From the IMG/VR virus record IMGVR_UViG_3300012940_001430, positions 1 through 24,604 of that record: DNA of 24,604 bases; one strand, written 5' to 3'. Positions 3,860-23,242 of the stretch are shown here, piece by piece; within the stretch, counting starts at the first letter, position 1; every line of letters starts with the position of its first letter. Under the pieces are notes generated by a model. It was not told the DNA's origin and did not search any database. It was given only the letters and a program-made list of their open reading frames with translations. Made by a program: the position numbers and the translations under genes. This DNA is from a virus (Duplodnaviria; Caudoviricetes).

Positions 3860-6309
3860 ACCATCCCCCGCATATTGGCTTGCCTGCTGTCGCGTTTCAG
3901 GCGCGCTGGCCCGGTTTTGTCATAAGACCGGATTGCACTCTGACTGGTCTTTCGAGATACGTTCTGAACGTAGGCTTGCAGGTTGCCGTCATTATCGACA
4001 GAAACGCCTACATCGACCCGCATGGCACCCGCCGCACTCTGTCGCGAAGGGGCTTTCAGGATCGGCATGGATGGCGCGCGCAAAGGTGACCCGCCGTCTT
4101 TCAGTCCGATAACGCCACCGCTATTGATGGCTTCCAGCAGAGCACGGTTGCGCTTCGTAGCTGCCGCGTTGACGACGAATTCCTCGTCGCTCAGAATCGC
4201 CGGGATTTTATCGCCGCGTGGCCCGCCAGGACCGCGAACAATTCCGCCACCGGCACGCTTTACCGGGCCACCGTCCTTGCGGAAGATTCCGCCCAGAGCG
4301 CTGAAAATATTGAAGCCGCCTTTGTCGACGTCGAAGATCGAATTCAGTGCGATCTCGAGCAGTTTGTCTGCGATCTTTCCAAGCGCGTTGGCAAAGGTTT
4401 CCGCAGCACTGGCGCCGTTCATCAGATCGCTGGCGATCCCGCCGACGAGATCCTTTTGGAAAGACGCCATATCTTCGGCGCTTTCCTTGATCTTGTTCTG
4501 TGCTTCAGCAAGCTTTTCAGCCTCAGAACTGGCATATGCCCACTGATCTGCCGTAGCAGAAATTTGTGCTCGCAGTTCCGGTGTTAGCGCCACGCCCGCC
4601 TTTTGCGCCGCATTGAGCAGTTCCTGCTCTGTGCGTGCCTTTTCCATGGCATAGCCATAATCGTTGATCAGCGGGTTGATCTGACGCTGTGCCTCGGTCT
4701 CTGCAACAAGTGCAGCGGTGCGGTCGGTGATACGTTGAACGTTATCGTCAAAGCGCTCAGCAGGGGTTTTCTTCGTTCGCCCCTTCTTCTTGTCGTCCGG
4801 AGTTACCGGGATGCCGCCGCCGTAACCTTCTGTGTTGCGAACTGGCTTTTTCTTACCGCTCACATAGTCTTCGAAGAGCTGCTGCTTACCCTCGTAGTCC
4901 TTGATCTGCTCTTCCAGTTTATCAATAAGGTCCTGACGGTCTTTAACGGCAGGGCTATTATCGACAGTGTTCTGAACGTCCGTTGCTTCCGGAGTCGGTA
5001 GCAACGACATTGAAGGGTTGATCTCTTCCTTGATTATAGCAGCAGCCAGCTCGCGCTCAGCCTTCGCACGCACCAATGCGGACTTAGCCGCATCTAGATC
5101 GGCGGCAATTTTACTGCGGGTCGATGCTACGGCTTCGCTATTAGCGTAGTCGAGGTTTTCAATTTGGAAGCTCAGTTCCTTGACCGCGGCTTGATGAGCC
5201 TTCGCAGACTTCTCTGCATCTGTCTGCCGATCTGACATCAGATACAAAGAAGCGGCAGCTGCTCCTGCAAGCAGCCCAATAGGGCCAAGGGCCGCGCTAA
5301 AACTTGCCGCGAGAGGAATACCAGCACGGAATGCCGTCAATAGCGCACCAAGCGCCGATACGACATTGCCAATACCGAGAACCATGCCGCCAAGGGCGCG
5401 ACCAGTCAGAGCGGCGATTGCAACCGTTGCGAATGCTACTGCGGCGTCGGCTACATCCTTGAAATTGTCGGCAAGATACTGCAGTGCCTGCACTAACCTT
5501 GCACTCGCTCCTGCAGACTGATCGGCATTACCAATATAGGCGGTGAACTCATTATTGATGCGGGTGAACGCATCTTTGATCGTTGCATTTGTTGCAGCGA
5601 AAGCAGCTTCGATCGGCTTCTGCGCGTTCAGAATAGCCTTGAAAACGCGGTCGGTCGTGAGCTTACCTTCCTCGCCGAGCTTCTTCAGCCCTGCGATCGA
5701 GACCTTGAACTCATCCGCAATCGCCTTAGCGATGATCGGCGCGTTTTCGCGGATGGAGCGAAGTTCATCGCCCTGCAAGACACCTGAGCCCAACGCCTGA
5801 GACAACTGCAGGATGCCTGCGATTTGTTCCTGCGTACTGGCGCCGCCAGCCTTAAATGCCTTAGTTACAATATCTGTTGCAGTCGCGATTTCCTGTTCGG
5901 ACTTAGCCACAGCCGATGCCGAACGGATGAGTTTGGCATAAAGATCGACGTAGGTTGTCAGATCGACTCTCGCCGCGTTCGCACCGCCCTTCAATTGGTT
6001 TAGGCTTCTGGTCTGTACGCCCGCGATCTGAGCCGCGGCACGGATCTTGTTGCCAGCTTCAGTCCACGCGTCAGCGTATTCGATAATTTCGCGAGTGCCC
6101 AATGCCGCGCCAATGCCAGCGGCGGGCCCGGCAAGGTTGCGAAACGTATTTCCAAGAATACCGTCAAGATTTCTGTTGAGCGAACGCGCGCGTCGCTCAA
6201 TGGCGTTGAATTGCGCGTTGGTGATATTGTTCGCCCTAGCCAACGACCTTTCAAATGATTTGAAATCGGCCGACAGTTGGACGACCAACTTCTCGATGTC
6301 AGTTGCCAT
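3856..6309 (-). CDS. Tape measure protein
   Basis: 817 aa, Ala-rich. Has the 'QLSQALGSGVLQGDELRSIRENAP' tape-measure motif, a hydrophobic middle and C-terminal 'GPGGPRGDKIPAILSDEEFVVNA'. Confidence 0.95.
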   Translation of the reverse strand: MATDIEKLVVQLSADFKSFERSLARANNITNAQFNAIERRARSLNRNLDGILGNTFRNLAGPAAGIGAALGTREIIEYADAWTEAGNKIRAAAQIAGVQTRSLNQLKGGANAARVDLTTYVDLYAKLIRSASAVAKSEQEIATATDIVTKAFKAGGASTQEQIAGILQLSQALGSGVLQGDELRSIRENAPIIAKAIADEFKVSIAGLKKLGEEGKLTTDRVFKAILNAQKPIEAAFAATNATIKDAFTRINNEFTAYIGNADQSAGASARLVQALQYLADNFKDVADAAVAFATVAIAALTGRALGGMVLGIGNVVSALGALLTAFRAGIPLAASFSAALGPIGLLAGAAAASLYLMSDRQTDAEKSAKAHQAAVKELSFQIENLDYANSEAVASTRSKIAADLDAAKSALVRAKAERELAAAIIKEEINPSMSLLPTPEATDVQNTVDNSPAVKDRQDLIDKLEEQIKDYEGKQQLFEDYVSGKKKPVRNTEGYGGGIPVTPDDKKKGRTKKTPAERFDDNVQRITDRTAALVAETEAQRQINPLINDYGYAMEKARTEQELLNAAQKAGVALTPELRAQISATADQWAYASSEAEKLAEAQNKIKESAEDMASFQKDLVGGIASDLMNGASAAETFANALGKIADKLLEIALNSIFDVDKGGFNIFSALGGIFRKDGGPVKRAGGGIVRGPGGPRGDKIPAILSDEEFVVNAAATKRNRALLEAINSGGVIGLKDGGSPLRAPSMPILKAPSRQSAAGAMRVDVGVSVDNDGNLQAYVQNVSRKTSQSAIRSYDKTGPARLKRDSRQANMRGMV

Positions 6310-15586: not shown

Positions 15587-15691
15587 ATTATTCCTATCAA
15601 AAACTTTTTTTCTACAAGTTTAGCAAAAGGACTGCCCATCGACGGTTCATGGTTTCGCGCCTTCGTCAGGCGTCGATCCCCCCCCCATGGG
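15587..15691. other. Probable cos / packaging-initiation region
   Basis: Non-coding gap between HNH and terS with a poly-G run (minus strand), the near-palindrome CCATCGACGG (15636-15645) and A/T tracts. This is the usual position of cos in HK97-like phages; the exact cut site cannot be read. Confidence 0.5.
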
Positions 15692-16006
15692 TCAGTGGCC
15701 TTTCCGCCACTCTGGCCATCCCGATGCGTCGACGCCCGGGACGATCAGCCCTCTATCTTCGCGCTGACCTCGGCTTGCATGGCACGACGCGCACGTTGAT
15801 ACGAACGGGCCCGACCAAAACAGATTTTCATCGCCACGATGAGCAACAGCATGGTGAACTTCCGTCGCCTCCTCGACTATCTCTCGCTCTAGGCACCATT
15901 GGCATAGCGGGTGTTCGTATAACTGGGCTTCACGTATCCGGCGCCAGCGGGCGGTGCGATACCATCGACGGTACTTGGTAGCGTCAGCGCTGCGCTGGTC
16001 GGTCAT
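15692..16006 (-). CDS. Terminase-associated HNH endonuclease (HK97 gp74-like)
   Basis: PLCQWC...VHH...CASCH; start at ATG 16006 (ATGA overlap). Confidence 0.9.
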   Translation of the reverse strand: MTDQRSADATKYRRWYRTARWRRIREAQLYEHPLCQWCLEREIVEEATEVHHAVAHRGDENLFWSGPFVSTCASCHASRGQREDRGLIVPGVDASGWPEWRKGH

Positions 16007-16269
16007 TGTGCCGAGCCAAACGTGGGCGGCGCTGGCCGGGGGAGATGGCCACCGAACTCTGCCCATTGCGACAGGTCATTGATGCCACCCTTGCGTGGTC
16101 CGAGACGCCCGAAGGAAATCTCGCGCTGAAGTCGACACAAGCCCTTAAGCCTGAATTGCCTGTCAGCTTCCTGCTCATCCGCCGTGGCTATCCGCGGCAT
16201 CGTCAGCTTGTTTCGCTTGAACGCGGCTTCGAGCCTGCGCTGTAGATCATCCAAACGTGGATCAGTCAT
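16003..16269 (-). CDS. Hypothetical protein (88 aa)
   Basis: ATGA overlaps with both neighbouring genes. Confidence 0.65.
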   Translation of the reverse strand: MTDPRLDDLQRRLEAAFKRNKLTMPRIATADEQEADRQFRLKGLCRLQREISFGRLGPRKGGINDLSQWAEFGGHLPRPAPPTFGSAQ

Positions 16270-16496
16270 AGAAACCGCATCGATATCTTAGGCAACCTCT
16301 TCGCCTGGTTGCAGTCGGGAATGCCTTTCGAAAGGTCAGCTCGCAAGAACACGACATCCCGCGCCAACTCGACTTGCTTCGCTTCCGACTGCTCCAGTCG
16401 TTCGCGTAGGACGGCAGTGTTCTCTTTCTCGCGCTCGATCTCTTCCTCAATCTGCGCAATTCGGCCAGCGATAAGCGTCTTGGTGATACTGTTCAT
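16266..16496 (-). CDS. Hypothetical coiled-coil protein (76 aa)
   Basis: GAGGAG RBS, heptad pattern, first CDS after the tRNAs. Confidence 0.7.
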   Translation of the reverse strand: MNSITKTLIAGRIAQIEEEIEREKENTAVLRERLEQSEAKQVELARDVVFLRADLSKGIPDCNQAKRLPKISMRFL

Positions 16497-16521
16497 GATG
16501 CTCCTCGTGATGATTGGTGAA

Positions 16522-16595
16522 TGGCACCTGCGGCTGGAATCGAACCAGCATCAGCGGTTTTGGAGACCGACGCTTTGCCACTAAGCTACGCAGAT
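16522..16595 (-). tRNA. tRNA-Trp (CCA)
   Basis: Cloverleaf ATCTGCG...GCTT/AAGC...TCGGT-CT-CCA-AA-ACCGC...GCTGG-TTCGATT-CCAGC-CGCAGGT-G-CCA; G73 discriminator. Confidence 0.9.
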
Positions 16596-16600
16596 CGAAC

Positions 16601-16676
16601 TGGTGCCCTAGCGAGGGATCGAACCCCGGACCACCCACTTATAAGGCGGCTGCTCTCCCATCTGAGCTACACGGGC
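16601..16676 (-). tRNA. tRNA-Ile (TAT anticodon), imperfect stems
   Basis: GCCCGTG-TA-GCTC-AGATGGGA-GAGC-A-GCCGC-CT-TAT-AA-GTGGG-TGGTC-CGGGG-TTCGATC-CCTCG-CTAGGGC-A-CCA; two acceptor-stem mismatches. Confidence 0.8.
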
Positions 16677-16679
16677 GAT

Positions 16680-16755
16680 TGGTTGCGGGCATCGGGATCG
16701 AACCGATCATATCCGGCTTATGAGACCGGCGAGCACACCAGCGCTCTCGCCCGCT
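16680..16755 (-). tRNA. tRNA-Met (CAT), initiator-like
   Basis: AGCGGGC...GAGC/GCTC...CCGGT-CT-CAT-AA-GCCGG...ATCGG-TTCGATC-CCGAT-GCCCGCA-A-CCA; 1:72 mismatch and A11-U24 pair. Confidence 0.85.
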
Positions 16756-16763
16756 GAAACGTT

Positions 16764-16960
16764 GCCGGGGGAGCGCCCACACTTTGCGCTGCAACCCCGG
16801 CTTCACCTGGCATGAGGAGGATGCCAAGGCGAATTTGATTGTTACGCCCGGTTCAGCGGTTGCACCCAACTGCAACATGACTGAGCGTCCGCGTGACGGC
16901 GGAAACAAGGCGGGGTTAGCCACCGAGTGACTAACCCCTTCAATTACTCTCACCACACGA
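16764..16960 (-). ncRNA. Candidate structured RNA / tRNA-operon leader with four or more hairpins
   Basis: Stems at 16764-16801, 16802-16833, 16851-16886 and 16912-16938. G-U pairs in two of the stems form only on the minus strand. Loops include AAAGUGUGG and CCUCCUC. Confidence 0.55.
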
Positions 16961-16978
16961 TGCGGATTTCCCCCCCAC

Positions 16979-18031
16979 CTACGCGACAAACTTTTTTATC
17001 GCATTGGCCAGGTTTTCGTTTGCAGCCAGAAGACGCCGCTTTCCACCGCCCTTTTTGTCGGCGAAATGGCTGGGCATTCCCAACTTCTCACCGACTTCCG
17101 CGAAGCTTCTGGAAGTTAGGGCCGCGTCGAGAGTTGCGACATCTTCACGGGAAAGCTCTGCGAGCGTCTCTTCCCACACTTCCCGATCTGCCAGCGCCGT
17201 CGATACGTCTTGCCACATCAGGGAGCCGGGCTGACCCTTAGGAAATTTCTTCATTCCCATGAACAATTCAGCGACAGATGAAGGTTGCCACGGAAACCCA
17301 GGCGGGCAACGCTGCACTGACGGCAGTTTTGGCGTATTAGCATAGGCTCTTGCGAGGTCGGCGCGGGTCTCATCTTTCGACACCTTGACGTAGCGTTGAC
17401 GTTTTTTCGTCTTCACCTTGTTCGGTAGATTGGCTTCAAGTAGTTCTGCGAAATAGGCGTTGCTCTCGCCTACGCCTTTCCTGTTGCCACCCAGTACTCG
17501 CTCTTGATCTTCTGACGTTCCGAGCATCGCACCAACCGGCACTTCCGCGTCGAAGGCAATTACCTTACCGTCAGGGCCGCGCGTGTAGGCCCGTTCTGTT
17601 GCGTGCCCGTTTGAAAAACGCAGTTTCCCGATGCGAGTGACAACCTTATGCCGTTTCCCTTTGCCGTCAATGTGCGTGCCGATCTCGATATCGCCGCCAA
17701 CCGGATGCGAGTATGATTTTTCATCGGGCCCACGATCGCTAAACCGATAGCGTGAATGGCCGCTATCAATCTTCCCGCAATACGGCACTTTACGGTATTC
17801 TGCCTTGGCGATCTCGCGTTCGATTTCACCGAGCGTCGGACGGATATTGATGCGTCGCTCGATGTGAAAATCTTTGATATCTGATCGCTGGTCCTCGTCG
17901 CCTTCGTCGTAGTTGTCGTTATCATGGGTCAGGTTCCAGTTAGTCCGCAAAGGCTCATATTCCTCCTGCGGCCGGTTCCGATACGCCATCAGTGGCGCAA
18001 GCTGTTCTGCTATCGATCCATGTCGGGTCAT
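16979..18031 (-). CDS. Hypothetical 350-aa protein, candidate late-gene regulator
   Basis: C-terminal HTH-like segment 'LSREDVATLDAALTSRSFAEVGEKLGM'; lies between the replication and packaging modules; ATGA overlap with the upstream gene. Confidence 0.7.
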   Translation of the reverse strand: MTRHGSIAEQLAPLMAYRNRPQEEYEPLRTNWNLTHDNDNYDEGDEDQRSDIKDFHIERRINIRPTLGEIEREIAKAEYRKVPYCGKIDSGHSRYRFSDRGPDEKSYSHPVGGDIEIGTHIDGKGKRHKVVTRIGKLRFSNGHATERAYTRGPDGKVIAFDAEVPVGAMLGTSEDQERVLGGNRKGVGESNAYFAELLEANLPNKVKTKKRQRYVKVSKDETRADLARAYANTPKLPSVQRCPPGFPWQPSSVAELFMGMKKFPKGQPGSLMWQDVSTALADREVWEETLAELSREDVATLDAALTSRSFAEVGEKLGMPSHFADKKGGGKRRLLAANENLANAIKKFVA

Positions 18032-18312: not shown

Positions 18313-18360
18313 GTCTGCTCCTCGTGTTCGTGGTGTGGTGTGGTCAGCTGTTTATTGGGG

Positions 18361-18480
18361 TGGAATTCCAACCGGGTTCCAACCCGGGTTGGGTGTTCCA
18401 ACCCAATGGGGGTATAAGGGGGTTGGAAGGAACACCCGTTGGAAGGCGTTGGAAGACCGTTGGAAGGACCGTTGGAATTC
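18361..18480. repeat. Iteron-like cluster, putative replication origin
   Basis: TTCCAAC at 18366, 18377 and 18396; GTTGGAA at 18422, 18438, 18448, 18459 and 18471; directly downstream of the primase-helicase gene. Confidence 0.8.
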
Positions 18481-20620
18481 ATTCACGAGCCATGCGACCG
18501 GCAGCGATTTCATCGGCGATAACGACCAATCTCTGCCTCTGTTTGGACTGTGGTCCTTCCATTTCGACGCGAATTTTGTCAGCGGCAAAAAGCCGTTTCA
18601 TGGCGCCTTCAAAACCCTTCTTGTCTATGCCTTCAGCATTTGGCATGCCTTCCATGAAAGTCGGTGCATAGGTGCTGCTGCGCGATGATGAAACACGCTG
18701 ACCCGTCCGATTGATCTCAGACAATAACCGCAAGAAGACCTGCTCTTGATGCGCGTGTAAAAGCCCAGCAGCGGGCGACGGCTTACCGTCGTCGAGCATA
18801 AAGGCACCTTCCTCCCATCGCAGCTTTATTTCGCCTCCAACCTTCCCGTAGTTCGTTTTCATGGTTTTCAGGATGCGGGCGTCTGGGTCGGGGTCGTCTT
18901 TGGTGTCTGGTCTCGTCAAATACAGTCGACTCCGAACCGAATTATTCCAGGCCGTAGACCCCGATGAACCCGTGCCGTTTTGCATGCCAGCTACTGACGG
19001 GTGGGCCAAAAGGATAATCGCGCAGCTGATCTCGATCGCCAATTTGCGAAGCATGGAAACAAACTGGCGGACCTGAGCGCGCTTAACCTCGTCGCCGCCG
19101 AACAAATCGGCAGCTGTGTCCAGAACGATCAGGGCAGGACAGTAGGTCCGAGCTTCCTTGGAAAAGGCGTTCCATAACGGTGTTGGCTCCATGACGCCGG
19201 TTTTCGTGTTCGGAATGGATAGAAGTGCGTCGGCGTCCGCCAGCGGTAGTAGCTTGAAGTCTTCAAGGTCGGATAGCTTCCGGCTGTGCGCCTTGGTGAT
19301 ATCGACCAGCCGTCGGTGAAATTCCGCCGCCTCATCCTCTGCACCGAGATACAGCACGCGACCACGCATGGGCTGCATATCAAGCGTCTCGCAACCCATA
19401 GAACCAGCGGCCGCCAGTTGAAGCGCCAGCAGCGACTTGCCGACGCCACCGTCACCATTCAGGATGGTCACCTGCCGCATAGGCACAAGACCGTCGAGCC
19501 ACCATTCACGCTCTGGTACGGGCAGTCCGAACCAAACCGACGGAACGATGAATGGCAATTCTTCGCCATTGGCTTCGGCGACATGCGCTACACTAGAAGC
19601 CTGCTTGGCTTGGTGTTTGGCAATTAGGCGTGACGTGTCGACAGGTCGCGTACCGTCGTCATAGTTATCGTTCGCAGGCGCCGGCATTTGTCGCGGTTTA
19701 AGTATCCCAGCATCCAGTCCGCGCCGGATTTTCGCCCGCACCTCTTTCTCACCGTCCTTCGCAACAACGCCATTGGCAAGCGCAGCGTCAAACAACCCGC
19801 GCTCGGCGTCGATTCGTGAAAGCGCGCCTGCACCAACTAGCGTACCCAAAGAAAACGCGCTGGCATTGACCTGGGCGCCTCGGCCGCCTTGCCGCGTTCC
19901 GGCCAGTTCGGCCAGTTCGGCCTCAACTGCCGATCGAACGTAATTGTCGTGGCAATCAGCCTCAAATACCCAATCGCCTGCAGCTTGTTCGACGTGTTTG
20001 GGCAAGATCAGGTCAAGCAGCCATTGCGGAGCGTCAGCCACTGCAGGAAGCCCCTCGCCGTCATGGTCGATCCAGTCATATGTTCGCCCGTCGGCTGTGA
20101 CGCTCCCGGCCGCGATCACAAACCCGCCCTCGCCACGGATATCAAGGCCGTGGGAAAGAGCGCCACGATTGCGGACACCGTCGACGTGATTGAAGTAATA
20201 GTGAACACCGCCGCCAGCGGTGCGGACGGCTGCTGTTTTTGGCAATGGGCTATTTGCGGCTTCAAGTGCAGCCAACGCGGCCTTGCCGTCGATAAGCGTC
20301 CCGTCTGCTGTGTGATGCATGTCAACGTCGAGGACGAATATCCCGCTCCGTGCGCCGGTTGGGATTCCAACCATGGCGCCGCCATGCCGATTTTCATCCC
20401 ACCAAGCGCGCGCTATACGTTCGAAAAGTGAAGCGCCCTTCAGTCCGTTCGATATAAGCGGGGCTTTGGCTGGCAAAACTGTGATTTCACCCGTTGCATT
20501 ATCGACCAACTTGATGTCGCCAGCTCGGCATGGAAATACAGGAATGCCGTGCGAGATATAGCTTAGCGCCAGATCAAGCATGGGGTCAGTCTGACCAGAT
20601 GTTGAGTTAACTGCGACCAT
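18479..20620 (-). CDS. Bifunctional primase-polymerase fused to an AAA_25/RepA-type helicase
   Basis: Prim-Pol motifs PVFPC, VLDVD, GGGVHYYF and DIRGEGG; Walker A GDGGVGKS, Walker B IVLDT, LAHPS. Start uncertain (ATG 20620 or 20582). Confidence 0.9.
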   Translation of the reverse strand: MVAVNSTSGQTDPMLDLALSYISHGIPVFPCRAGDIKLVDNATGEITVLPAKAPLISNGLKGASLFERIARAWWDENRHGGAMVGIPTGARSGIFVLDVDMHHTADGTLIDGKAALAALEAANSPLPKTAAVRTAGGGVHYYFNHVDGVRNRGALSHGLDIRGEGGFVIAAGSVTADGRTYDWIDHDGEGLPAVADAPQWLLDLILPKHVEQAAGDWVFEADCHDNYVRSAVEAELAELAGTRQGGRGAQVNASAFSLGTLVGAGALSRIDAERGLFDAALANGVVAKDGEKEVRAKIRRGLDAGILKPRQMPAPANDNYDDGTRPVDTSRLIAKHQAKQASSVAHVAEANGEELPFIVPSVWFGLPVPEREWWLDGLVPMRQVTILNGDGGVGKSLLALQLAAAGSMGCETLDMQPMRGRVLYLGAEDEAAEFHRRLVDITKAHSRKLSDLEDFKLLPLADADALLSIPNTKTGVMEPTPLWNAFSKEARTYCPALIVLDTAADLFGGDEVKRAQVRQFVSMLRKLAIEISCAIILLAHPSVAGMQNGTGSSGSTAWNNSVRSRLYLTRPDTKDDPDPDARILKTMKTNYGKVGGEIKLRWEEGAFMLDDGKPSPAAGLLHAHQEQVFLRLLSEINRTGQRVSSSRSSTYAPTFMEGMPNAEGIDKKGFEGAMKRLFAADKIRVEMEGPQSKQRQRLVVIADEIAAGRMARE

Positions 20621-20858
20621 AGCGGGCGACGGCCTCCTGTTTCGCGAGAACGACAAGCTCATCCGCAAGGGAAATGGGAAGTGTAACGGAATAACCGAAG
20701 TTGTCCTTTGGGCCGAAAACGCGCAGTCCGTTGCGAGTTTCTGCAAGCCGCATCCGGTAAATCTTCAAACCGTTCGGAAACTCAGCGTCGAAAAAATATT
20801 TCGTTCCCCCAGCGCCAATACGCGCCGGGGTGATGTTCAGGATCGTGGCGGACGTCAT
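20607..20858 (-). CDS. Small hypothetical protein, possibly SpoVG-like nucleic-acid binder
   Basis: Beta-meander plus helix pattern 'FFDAEFPNGLKIYRMRL...NGLRVFGP'; coupled overlaps. Confidence 0.65.
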   Translation of the reverse strand: MTSATILNITPARIGAGGTKYFFDAEFPNGLKIYRMRLAETRNGLRVFGPKDNFGYSVTLPISLADELVVLAKQEAVARYGRS

Positions 20859-21241: not shown

Positions 21242-21273
21242 GTAGTTTCCTCGCGTTATTAGTGGTGTGGTAA

Positions 21274-21495: not shown

Positions 21496-21571
21496 AAATT
21501 CTCCTCGTGTTCAGGCGCGCGTCGGCCCATGGCGCGGGCTGTTGCGCATGCGGTTTGTTGTTGTGGTGTGG

Positions 21572-21775
21572 TTAAGCGGCTCGGGCTTCTTGCGCCTCAA
21601 TGAACGCCAAAATTTTTGACTTCCTTGCGCACACCAAGTCTCCAACCTTGAAGGTCGGCAAGACCCCGGTTTTTGCCAGGTGATATACTGTTCTCTCTCC
21701 AAAACCGGAGAATAATGCTATGGCTTTCGCGCCGACCAGCATATCGTCGGCAAGATTGTCATTTCCCGCGTTCAT
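21572..21775 (-). CDS. xis: AlpA/excisionase-like HTH protein
   Basis: 'GAKAIALFSGFGERTVYHLAKTGVLPTFKVG'; divergent from the integrase; GAGGAG RBS. Confidence 0.8.
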   Translation of the reverse strand: MNAGNDNLADDMLVGAKAIALFSGFGERTVYHLAKTGVLPTFKVGDLVCARKSKILAFIEAQEARAA

Positions 21776-21959
21776 ACGAATCTCCTCGCGTTACCAGCGC
21801 GCACGAAGGCGCACGACTGGCGTGGGTGTGGTAGGGTGATTTGGAATATTGCCGCAGGGTTCGGTGGCGGCTTTTTGTTAGGTGTTGGTCCCAAGGACCG
21901 GCTTGATTGCTTGTGGCAATCCTTCGATCAGACGTGAGTCTGTCGGAAACCATTACAGC

Positions 21960-22030
21960 CACATTAGGTGAGTCTCGAACGATCATGTCAACTTGTTTTT
22001 TTGACGACGGTTCATTTTCCATGTTACGCG
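21960..22030. promoter_or_regulatory. Back-to-back promoters for the xis operon and integrase
   Basis: Minus strand TTGACA (21991-21986) - 17 nt - CCTAAT; plus strand TTGACG (22001-22006) with an uncertain -10. Confidence 0.5.
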
Positions 22031-22060
22031 TATTCCGTTAGTCACAAAATGGAGACATAC

Positions 22061-23242
22061 ATGTCCATCAGGGAAAGAACCTGGACGACAAAAGGCGTAG
22101 TAAAAACAGCGTGGGTCTGTGATTATGTCGACCAGAAAGGCAAGCGCCATCTGAAAACGTTCAGGACTAAAAAAGAGGCCGAAGCATTCGATTCTCAATC
22201 GCATATAGAAGTCATGGGACGCGTTCACGTTGCCGATGCGGACACCGTGACTGTCAGGAAGGCTGCGGAGTTCTGGCTGTCCGAATGTGATGGTGCTCTG
22301 GAGCGATCGACAGTCGATCAGTACAAGCAGCACGTTGAGCTTCACATCAATCCATTCATCGGTAAAAAGCGTTTGAATGAGATATCCGTACCGGAAATTC
22401 GTAATTTCCTTGATGTGCTGAAGTCTGAAGGAAGATCGGCGGCGATGGTTCGCGCTGTCCGTGTCAGCTTGGGGTCGCTTCTCTCCGACGCGCAGGAGCG
22501 CGGCCTGGTCGTGAGGAATGCCGTGAAGGACATGGGTCGCGCGAAAGGGCGCAAAAGAGCAGAAGCGCGTCACCAACGCCCGGTCGAAGTCGGAACGGAC
22601 ATTCCGACACCCGCAGAAATAAAAGCCATCCTTGCGGCAGCTACGGGTAAATCTCGCATATTCATCTTGACCGCGTGCATGACTGGTATGCGAGCTTCGG
22701 AATTGCGAGGCTTGCGATGGCAGGACGTTAATCTTGATCGAGCCGAAATCACGGTTAGACAGCGCGCTGATGCCTATCAAGAAATAGGCTCCCCGAAGTC
22801 GAAAAAAGGAAGACGAACGATCCCGATCCCCGGCCCGCTCGCCGATGCTCTGAAAACATGGAAAGACGAATGCCCAAAAGGAACACTCGGGCTTGTATTT
22901 CCGACGGGAACGGGAGCTATTGAATATCATAGCAACATAGTTCACCGATGGTATCAGCCCGCGCAGGTAGCGGCTGGCGTCACCGTCAAAACTGGTAAGG
23001 TGGATAAGGACGGGAACGCCGAACTTGCGGCGAAATACACCGGCCTCCATGCCCTTCGGCATTTCTATGCGTCGTGGTGCATCAATCGACCGATCGATGG
23101 CGGATTGGGATTGCCCGCAAAAGTTGTTCAGGAGCGTTTGGGGCATTCTTCCATCACCGTTACATTGGACACATATTCGCATCTATTCGAACGGGGCGAT
23201 GACGGGTCACTGATGGATAAAGCGGCGTCGGCGTTTTTGTAA
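22061..23242 (+). CDS. int: Tyrosine integrase
   Basis: Catalytic motifs GMRASE, PKSK, HALRH, LGHS and TYSH; start at ATG 22061 with GGAG RBS; 393 aa. Confidence 0.97.
   Translation: MSIRERTWTTKGVVKTAWVCDYVDQKGKRHLKTFRTKKEAEAFDSQSHIEVMGRVHVADADTVTVRKAAEFWLSECDGALERSTVDQYKQHVELHINPFIGKKRLNEISVPEIRNFLDVLKSEGRSAAMVRAVRVSLGSLLSDAQERGLVVRNAVKDMGRAKGRKRAEARHQRPVEVGTDIPTPAEIKAILAAATGKSRIFILTACMTGMRASELRGLRWQDVNLDRAEITVRQRADAYQEIGSPKSKKGRRTIPIPGPLADALKTWKDECPKGTLGLVFPTGTGAIEYHSNIVHRWYQPAQVAAGVTVKTGKVDKDGNAELAAKYTGLHALRHFYASWCINRPIDGGLGLPAKVVQERLGHSSITVTLDTYSHLFERGDDGSLMDKAASAFL

Follow-up and report, generated by a model that had tools for sequence, protein, structure and literature searches.

The virus record IMGVR_UViG_3300012940_001430 (IMG/VR; Caudoviricetes) was analysed as a single stretch of 24,604 nucleotides (nt), referred to here as the window. 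On its minus strand, between a gene for a 350-amino-acid protein (gene X) and three tRNA genes, the window carries two adjacent hairpins. Comparative sequence evidence identifies them as a copy of a covarying RNA module that is conserved among Rhizobiales phages. This two-hairpin module is designated E2, and the window copy, counted with a 3-nt 5' lead and an 8-nt 3' tail, occupies positions 16756-16836. Our favoured reading, to which we assign a probability of about 0.4, is that E2 is a small RNA of ~80 nt that would arise from the leader of the tRNA/late-gene unit by cleavage or termination and would act via an anti-Shine-Dalgarno loop. The near-invariant CUCCUC of this loop would likely pair with ribosome-binding sites.

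The 81-nt stretch 16756-16836, defined by its fold and by its match to a covariance model of the family, folds into exactly two adjacent hairpins with a minimum free energy (MFE) of -39.7 kcal/mol (z = -4.25); none of 200 shuffled sequences folded equally well, and the z value for the whole intergenic region is -3.92. Hairpin 1 (16802-16833) has a 12-bp stem with one bulge and a 7-nt, anti-Shine-Dalgarno-like loop, CCUCCUC (16820-16814). Hairpin 2 (16764-16801) is composed of a basal stem (GCCGGGG/CCCCGGC), an internal GGUUGCAG...CUCCC motif, and an apical loop region, AAAGUGUGG (16785-16777). The minus-strand DNA reads CCTCCTC and AAAGTGTGG at the two loops, and GTGTGGTG is present at 16958-16951. 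By hand check, the segment 16811-16822 is complementary at 10 of 12 positions to CACGAGGAGCAT (16509-16498, minus strand), the Shine-Dalgarno (SD) region of the first open reading frame (ORF) after the tRNA genes. Hairpin 2 ends at 16764, and tRNA-Met(CAU), located by ARAGORN at 16680-16755 on the minus strand, starts 8-9 nt past it. An earlier interpretation of the window made from its letters alone (the sequence-only reading) had described these hairpins with their loop positions, the 10-of-12 complementarity, and an 8-nt gap to the tRNA, and all of this proved correct when the minus strand was re-read.

The family was delineated from loci anchored on gene X (given handles beginning with L), i.e. 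25 from bacterial genomes, 80 from viral contigs, and those of two cultured phages. Alignment of 30 E2 copies with MAFFT and RNAalifold recovered hairpin 2 only, and a hand-given structure and covariance models were used instead: model R1 was built with that structure from 14 E2 copies, and model R2 from 96 aligned matches, among which there were no window-type rows. E-values from both models are rough, as the calibration was short. R1 matched 84 copies at E <= 0.05 in 83 of the 95 non-redundant sources, always on the gene (coding) strand, with gene X upstream and the tRNA/packaging genes downstream. In these relatives, a long hairpin with the apical loop (Y)CUCCUC(Y) is followed by a 3-5-nt linker and a second hairpin, whose basal stem surrounds a conserved helix formed by GGUUGAG and CUCCC with two U residues bulged. 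The GGUUGAG strand lies on the 5' side of hairpin 2, as in the window, or on its 3' side, the latter arrangement being found in 24 of the 62 delineated copies. Of 92 distinct aligned rows, 82 keep CUCCUC in the loop of hairpin 1; the apical loop of hairpin 2 is hypervariable across the family.

The stems covary strongly. Paired bases account for 95.1% of cells, compared with 74.5% in shuffles, 21 of the 22 stem pairs show changes on both sides, and the covariation score is 0.434, compared with 0.120 in shuffles (reached by 0 of 500) and 0.020-0.061 in slid registers; these counts derive from an alignment fitted to the model, a fitting that favours structure, and the margin is large. Identity of gene X among E2 carriers drops to about 30%. 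The sequence-only reading had proposed a structured RNA, named covariation as its check, and described the CCUCCUC loop as one of two pairing loops. The family data bear out the structure as that of a genuine conserved module, and the counts given above show the CUCCUC loop to be conserved.

The window copy scored 22.7 bits against R2 (E 0.0083), which was the top match in the window, followed by matches of 14.3 and 13.5 bits. Its hairpin 2 carries GGGGUUGCAGCGC...GCGCUCCCCC, which agrees with the pattern GGUUG(N)AG/CUCCC around the bulge; a GGUUGUAG variant of this motif is found in loci L012, L033, L043, and L072. The gene order, the R2 match, the CUCCUC loop of hairpin 1, and the internal helix of hairpin 2 are those of the family, and the window copy lies directly after a second structured element (E1, described below) and directly before a tRNA gene, as in relatives. 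On these sequence features, we accept the window copy as a divergent E2 member. Further window-type copies were matched by R2 in L031/L111 (24.4 bits) and L110 (19.6 bits). L031 contains two E2 copies (4181-4262 and 4952-5046), one window-type and one canonical, which are ~700 nt apart and separated by AT-rich, foreign-looking DNA.

E2 is phage-borne and occurs as a single copy: in two host genomes, there was one match per genome, each within a prophage. In the family genome sample, for which stricter filters were applied and 27 candidates were scored per genome, a match to E2 was obtained in 2 of 151 genomes, which shows sporadic occurrence and not absence elsewhere. The cultured phages carrying E2, both with canonical copies, are Rhizobium phage RHph_TM3_3_14B (laboratory host R. 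etli) and Sinorhizobium phage NV1.1.1 (laboratory host S. meliloti).

The two ends of the module are informative about how it might be released. In 55 of the 84 copies, hairpin 2 runs into a U-rich tail (six or more U within 10 nt) like that of an intrinsic terminator. The 29 copies without it, the window copy included, still keep both hairpins and the internal motif; therefore, termination is not the conserved function. In the window, hairpin 2 is followed by AACGUUUC and not by a U-rich tail, the terminator scan called no site there, and the combination that defines an intrinsic terminator (a GC-rich hairpin with a directly adjoining U-rich tract) is lacking. The borders of E2 often coincide with tRNA ends. 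A tRNA gene starts 10-14 nt past hairpin 2 in 16 of the 84 copies (nine with and seven without a U-rich tail), and five copies begin at the 3' end of a tRNA-Met gene, so that the tRNA adjacency pointed out in the sequence-only reading recurs in relatives. Such recurrent abutment fits release of E2 by tRNA-processing enzymes. Neither a downstream tRNA gene within the fetched locus nor a tRNA gene abutting the 5' end was present for 38 of the 84 copies (E <= 0.05). From its placement, E2 appears to lie in the leader of the tRNA/late-gene unit, with its structure kept with or without the ability to terminate.

According to the favoured reading, E2 would be transcribed within this leader. Its 3' end would be formed in most relatives by hairpin 2 acting as an intrinsic terminator with a U-rich tail, and in tail-less copies, such as that of the window, by ribonuclease P (RNase P) cleavage at the tRNA that begins 8-14 nt further on; the 5' end of E2 would abut E1 or the 3' end of a tRNA. 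A discrete RNA is preferred over a terminator alone because the tail-less copies keep the structure and tRNAs lie at the ends. Once free, the RNA would occlude strong GAGGAG ribosome-binding sites, which in the window would be mainly those of small early genes and of the first gene after the tRNAs, most late genes having a weak SD sequence or none. The outcome would be a translational shut-down from early to late genes, or of the host, and not lysogenic immunity. Transcripts that read through would carry the late genes, and the same element would thus also be present in the late mRNA leader.

The SD contexts of the window genes are consistent with such targets. Five small genes, with start codons at 21775, 21495, 21241, 18312, and 16496 (minus strand), share the context A(A/C)RCGAGGA(G), whereas most structural and late genes have a weak SD sequence, none, or are translationally coupled; the presence of strong SD sequences on small early genes and weak ones on most late genes suggests early shut-off rather than lysogenic immunity. 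The early leaders also share a repeat, ACCACACC, which is present in exactly five copies in the window, all on the minus strand and in four early leaders, each with CGAGGA(G) at a distance of 9 to about 65 nt on its 3' side. It was found in the leader of a 94-amino-acid ORF (18313-18344, where ACCACACCACACCACGAACACGAGGAGCAGAC precedes the ATG and ACCACACC lies at 18332-18344), which is the best candidate for a bipartite target and keeps its motif in L002, L031/L111, and L110; in the leader of a 128-amino-acid ORF (21242-21271; ACCACACCACTAATAACGCGAGGAAACTAC before the ATG, ACCACACC at 21264-21271); directly past the stop codon of an HTH_17 gene, ~65 nt upstream of the CGAGGAG of a 73-amino-acid ORF (21565-21572); and in the first early leader, between the integrase and HTH_17 genes (21825-21832). 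The repeat noted in the sequence-only reading is thus real as an 8-10-mer clustered in leaders. CCACAC itself occurs at expectation in the window (10 found and 9.77 expected), and CCACAC-N(1-30)-GAGGA was found twice, against 0.29 expected, a count equalled in 2 of 100 shuffles. The complementarities of 6-7 nt at the loops are, by themselves, weak evidence. GAGGAG is simply a strong SD sequence, and the CA-rich ACCACACC(AC) tracts might act as unstructured enhancers of translation.

Several observations weigh against a released anti-SD RNA. Loop 1 shows no early-versus-late selectivity in the window, its duplex energies being -13.9 kcal/mol with the TerL gene and -17.0 kcal/mol with the Dit gene, compared with -10.4 to -11.2 kcal/mol with the early leaders. 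The GGUUGAG/CUCCC helix, in either orientation, is left unexplained by an anti-SD seed. In 19 of the 84 relatives, the module is followed after no more than ~30 nt by the start of an ORF with 70 or more codons (seven of these ORFs are HNH-like by eye, and that of L028 is annotated as HNH); transcription must therefore pass hairpin 2, and such read-through fits a cis-regulatory role at least equally well. A scan of 16300-17200 with Escherichia coli consensus hexamers, which is weak evidence, found no sigma-70-type promoter. The window copy reached only 10.1 bits (E 0.68) against the narrower model R1, and the dependence of the covariation counts on a model-fitted alignment belongs on the same side.

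The function proposed in the sequence-only reading fared less well than the structure. In that proposal, E2 is a two-site antisense RNA from the tRNA leader, with loop 1 directed to GAGGAG and loop 2 (GUGUGG) to CCACAC, that silences early genes as an immunity repressor like P1/P7 C4 or P4 CI. The loop order suits antiparallel pairing with four window leaders, tRNA adjacency is recurrent, all three window-type phages (window, L031/L111, and L110) keep both GUGUGG and the CCACAC...CGAGGAG leaders, and between the window and L031, identity is ~92% over the whole of hairpin 2, loop included, against just 68% for gene X. Outside the window-type phages, the design falls away with the hypervariability of loop 2. 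GUGUGG is found anywhere in 1 of 96 aligned E2 rows and in none of the 21 rows from 20 loci that keep CCACAC-SD-start leaders; L002, the closest relative by gene X (84% identical), keeps a CCACACCACACC...CGAGGAG leader and has a different E2 subtype with another loop 2. Two exposed segments and their paired targets are both present in the window and two window-type relatives but are not kept together in these 20 loci or in L002; a changed loop 2 beside a kept leader motif is the outcome that the sequence-only reading had named as refuting. Complements of loop-2 6-mers are barely more common in a phage's own early region than in those of others (0.41 and 0.31 per 6-mer per kb; permutation test, no formal significance), and GUGUGG is partly paired in the MFE fold, where the open loop is just AAGUG. 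E2 lies 1.5-5 kb downstream of the leaders, with no promoter of its own detected in the consensus scan, no Rfam family, C4 included, matches it, and the CA-rich motif may be a plain translational enhancer. The lack of a visible CI, to which the proposal had appealed, is not established because the provirus record is partial (39% complete according to CheckV), which gives no basis for judging a protein repressor absent. We regard the two-site antisense RNA as very unlikely; judging from sequence, a lineage-specific second contact in the window-type phages might nevertheless exist.

The most serious competitor, doubtful as it also seems to us, is that E2 acts in cis in the leader of the late (tRNA-HNH-terminase-structural) operon. 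Hairpin 2 would then be a regulated terminator, and hairpin 1, with its conserved loop, would be recognised by a phage or host factor or provide an alternative partner for GGUUGAG. Jointly, the two hairpins would determine whether late genes are transcribed, much as lambda nut/tR, pR'-tR', or HK022 put do. Such a role agrees with the constant placement of E2, which on the gene strand always follows gene X and precedes the late genes, with the terminator-like tails of the 55 copies, and with the 19 closely following ORFs, which leave no space for a promoter. The neighbouring gene X has a C-terminus resembling sigma-70 region 4 and recalls a late regulator beside its site; in addition, the hairpin-1 loop CUC-CU-CC could in principle displace the CUC-CC strand that pairs with GG-UU-GAG in a helix that is otherwise unexplained. 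The tail-less copies with intact hairpins speak against it, as do the tRNA genes inserted before E2 in some phages and after it in others, a pattern that fits a module released by cutting. Both partners of the alternative pairing are nearly invariant, so that covariation is uninformative on it. The released-RNA and cis-element readings are compatible and not exclusive. It is less probable, and on balance unlikely, that E2 is a structural or processing module without a regulatory target, i.e. a protective hairpin pair or a spacer for RNase E, P, or Z with a C-rich loop for contact with a protein or nuclease. E2 is indeed embedded among recurrent structured modules (E1 and others) and tRNA genes, and its borders coincide with tRNA ends; however, spacers rarely keep a near-invariant 6-nt apical loop and an internal helix over such divergence, and 38 of the 84 copies lack a tRNA gene on either side. 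That the hairpins arose by chance, or are unremarkable GC-rich structures of an intergenic region whose C-rich loop is a coincidence, would be suggested by the short seeds, the CCACAC count, and the weak R1 score of the window copy, but it is contradicted by the family covariation, the synteny in 83 of 95 sources, the R2 match, and the fold z value, and we consider it extremely improbable. On the opposite strand, a small ORF (GAGGAGG as SD sequence and an ATG in some relatives) was rejected as a candidate, since its spacing in the window is 0 nt, the stems covary as RNA, and there is no conserved frame.

An extension of the favoured anti-SD RNA, which we put forward as speculative and rather unlikely in its entirety, is that E1, E2, and the tRNAs form a processed array of non-coding RNAs at the early/late boundary of Rhizobiales siphophages. 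Here E2 would mimic the anti-SD sequence of 16S rRNA and, once released by a terminator or RNase P, would titrate the strong GAGGAG sites of early phage genes and of the host, so that translation would shift to the weak-SD, coupled late genes in an RNA-only switch. Acting in trans, E2 would give a phage a compact tool for reprogramming the initiation of translation; acting in cis, it would mark a late-transcription control point in a large, little-studied phage group. Either way, E2, E1, and gene X together provide a precise, testable entry point to the control of late genes in phages of Rhizobium, Sinorhizobium, Agrobacterium, Mesorhizobium, and their relatives, with two cultured phages that carry E2 and a new covariance model for annotation.

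Several known systems resemble E2 in part. P1/P7 C4 and P4 CI are RNase P-matured phage small RNAs in which two exposed segments pair with two sites in early transcripts. E2 is likewise phage-borne and two-looped and abuts a tRNA, so that RNase P could set its 3' end; unlike them, it has no Rfam match, lies past the last early gene and not in the controlled leader, and has one conserved loop only. Lambda 6S RNA and StxS (pR'-tR') are short, promoter-proximal late transcripts of lambdoid phages. The likeness consists of a terminator before the late genes, with read-through giving late mRNA, a putative late regulator gene upstream, and tRNA genes in the region; in contrast, the promoter scan was empty at E2, gene X is not a Q homologue (no Pfam family, sigma-4-like C-terminus), and many E2 copies are tail-less. 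The 3'ETS of leuZ is a small RNA derived from a tRNA-linked spacer, with ends set by tRNA-processing enzymes, whereas E2 is independently structured and also occurs without an adjacent tRNA and with its own terminator. The put sites of HK022 RNA lie just downstream of early promoters and are not themselves terminators. E2, which is likened to them by description only, shares with them a pair of neighbouring hairpins on a phage transcript, with a possible cis action on the transcribing polymerase, but it is not located just downstream of early promoters.

Rfam holds a curated model of the C4 antisense RNA. No match to E2 was obtained in Rfam 15, either in the window and 16 loci at gathering thresholds or in positions 16400-17100 of the window and the canonical copy of L066 at E <= 10; the Rfam check named in the sequence-only reading thus linked no family, the C4 model included, to the hairpins. 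Besides tRNAs, the searches returned only ar35, at other positions in three loci, and matches to ar14 and abiF below threshold. The ar35 matches (RF02346) were above the gathering score and lie in the early region of three related prophages (L024 643-798, L020 1638-1786, and L007 1877-1985), so that a known 'chromosomal' alphaproteobacterial small RNA family is here riding on prophages. The L020 copy of ar35 has no CCUCC loop and is therefore unrelated to E2. The abiF RNA motif was found just upstream of E2 in L066 (4219-4257) with 25.8 bits against a gathering score of 37 (E 0.018), and may be a chance match.

The closest resemblance is to the cuckoo RNAs of Alphaproteobacteria. These consist of two to four adjacent hairpins, each with CCUCCUCCC in its loop (PMC4615179), a sequence that in the cuckoo, CcsR, and NfeR1 RNAs is read as an anti-SD signature (PMC4615179, PMC3927594), and some RNAs of this type are processed from longer transcripts (PMC4615179, PMC3927594, PMC8034643). 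CcsR/RSs0680, ar14/NfeR1, and SmelA075/SmelA099 share with E2 an alphaproteobacterial setting, a GC-rich hairpin, a CCUCCUC-type loop, and adjacent hairpins without multiloops. Unlike the cuckoo RNAs, E2 carries the motif, with the core CUCCUC, in just a single loop of 7-9 nt, its hairpin-2 loop being AAAGUGUGG in the window and variable elsewhere; it also has the GGUUGAG/CUCCC helix and is phage-borne and single copy. The ar14 model gave 12 bits (gathering score 58.8) on the canonical copy of L066 and nothing on the window (E <= 10). By analogy, E2 would act like a small RNA with an anti-SD loop, yet it is not a cuckoo RNA as these are defined. No phage-borne family of anti-SD loop RNAs was found in the literature, where such RNAs are known from alphaproteobacterial chromosomes. 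A published catalogue (PMC10690425) gives >10,000 candidate phage RNAs, 53 of them Rhizobiales-hosted and including the 94-nt DNAVirus_2098 of Agrobacterium-hosted phages, and E1 or E2 may already be contained in it without a function.

The window record is a 24.6-kb provirus. All genes identified are on the minus strand, except for the integrase gene (21968-23242, plus strand). In minus-strand order, an HTH_17-like small gene is followed by small ORFs, a PrimPol-helicase gene (18479-20746), the 94-amino-acid ORF, and gene X (16979-18031; phrog_36072), which was used as the syntenic anchor for E1 and E2. Downstream of gene X come a 223-nt intergenic region with both hairpins, the three tRNA genes, two small ORFs, an HNH gene (15692-16066, minus strand, from gene calls), and the late genes, namely those for TerS, TerL, a protease/capsid protein, the portal, and connector and tail proteins. 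Besides tRNA-Met(CAU), the tRNA genes are tRNA-Ile(UAU) and tRNA-Trp(CCA) (16522-16676, minus strand), which lie directly upstream of the small ORFs, HNH, and terminase genes. Homologues of gene X are carried by Brucella/Ochrobactrum, Mesorhizobium, Rhizobium, Agrobacterium, Bosea, and others, and, judged by these homologues, the host of the window phage can be placed among the Hyphomicrobiales.

No Pfam family was found for the window protein of gene X, and its predicted structure is of only moderate quality (predicted local distance difference test score 66.6; predicted template-modelling (TM) score 0.32). The C-terminal ~75 amino acids are predicted to fold like the helix-turn-helix of sigma-70 region 4, of the -35-binding type of extracytoplasmic function sigma factors. 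A Foldseek search of the PDB gave no match at E <= 0.001; the top four matches are chains of 3hug (SigL sigma-4 domain), with target TM scores of 0.73-0.76 and E-values of 0.14-0.24, and only this C-terminal sigma-4 likeness is usable from the model. The Pfam family Sigma70_r4 was matched by 1 of 30 gene X homologues (E 0.0031). On this structural model, gene X is a candidate late-gene regulator.

E1 (16838-16943, minus strand), a second conserved structured element defined by regular expression and RNAalifold, lies immediately upstream of E2. Located by the regular expression in 89 of 108 loci, it measures about 85-112 nt and directly adjoins gene X on its 5' side and E2 or a tRNA gene on its 3' side. 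The window copy contains a GAAGGGG hairpin, CGGAC, CUGA(A/G), and the 3' end GGGCGUAAC(A/U)AU; across loci, the order is the GAAGGGG hairpin, CACACCUUUCCG, a GCGC hairpin, CGGAC, CUGA(G/A), and the 3' end GGGCGUAACUAU. A covarying stem, ACGCUCGGC/GCCGGGCGU, often encloses a GCUGCA hairpin, and RNAalifold on 24 sequences gave 24 pairs, 11 with compensatory changes. The first hairpin was terminator-like in the terminator scan of the window. In Rfam, E1 had no match in 16400-17100 of the window or in the canonical locus (E <= 10). E1 may be a leader or a site used by gene X. The sequence GTAACTAT at the end of E1 was rejected as a -10 box because the transcription start would fall inside the tRNA in L029 and L007, where the tRNA starts 2-5 nt later. 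In HK97-like phages, cos lies between the HNH and TerS genes, a position that would presumably correspond to 15587-15691 here. The possibility that E1 or E2 is a cos site was rejected by inference, given that compensatory base-pairing is unlike a terminase site and that no contig ends at E1.

The region downstream of gene X looks, from its sequence, like an array of structured RNAs. Between E1 and E2, recurrent modules are visible by eye in many loci (L002 6170-6235, L029 5143-5200, L010 5090-5165, L011, L014, L022, and L023). Those downstream of gene X include UUGGCAGUUCUAGGGUYURACCCGCGACAUCGCC, CGAAGAUGCCGCGACCCAGUGAUGGUG, and CCUGAAYYAACAGG followed by a GCGCUGCGGACGCGCAG hairpin, and an AGAUAA-looped insert recurs at the tip of hairpin 2. 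Just 3' of E2 in L086, L093, L095, L101, L102, and L104, a GGGUCCUCCUAAUUGAUAGUUGGAGGAGCC hairpin stands immediately before an ATG; its stem sequesters an SD sequence, the GGAGG of the following gene being paired with CCUCC.

The tRNA-Met(CAU) of the window is atypical, scoring 33.8 bits against the Rfam tRNA model and aligning slightly better to the tRNA-Sec model (37.1 bits, under the gathering score of 47), an alignment in which its D-stem reads as 6 bp. Only the 5' half of this tRNA remains in L002, beside a rearrangement. The metagenome contig L112 is identical to the window over the 151 nt compared (the E2 stretch and its flanks), and every CCACAC and GTGTGG context compared in it is the same as that of the window.

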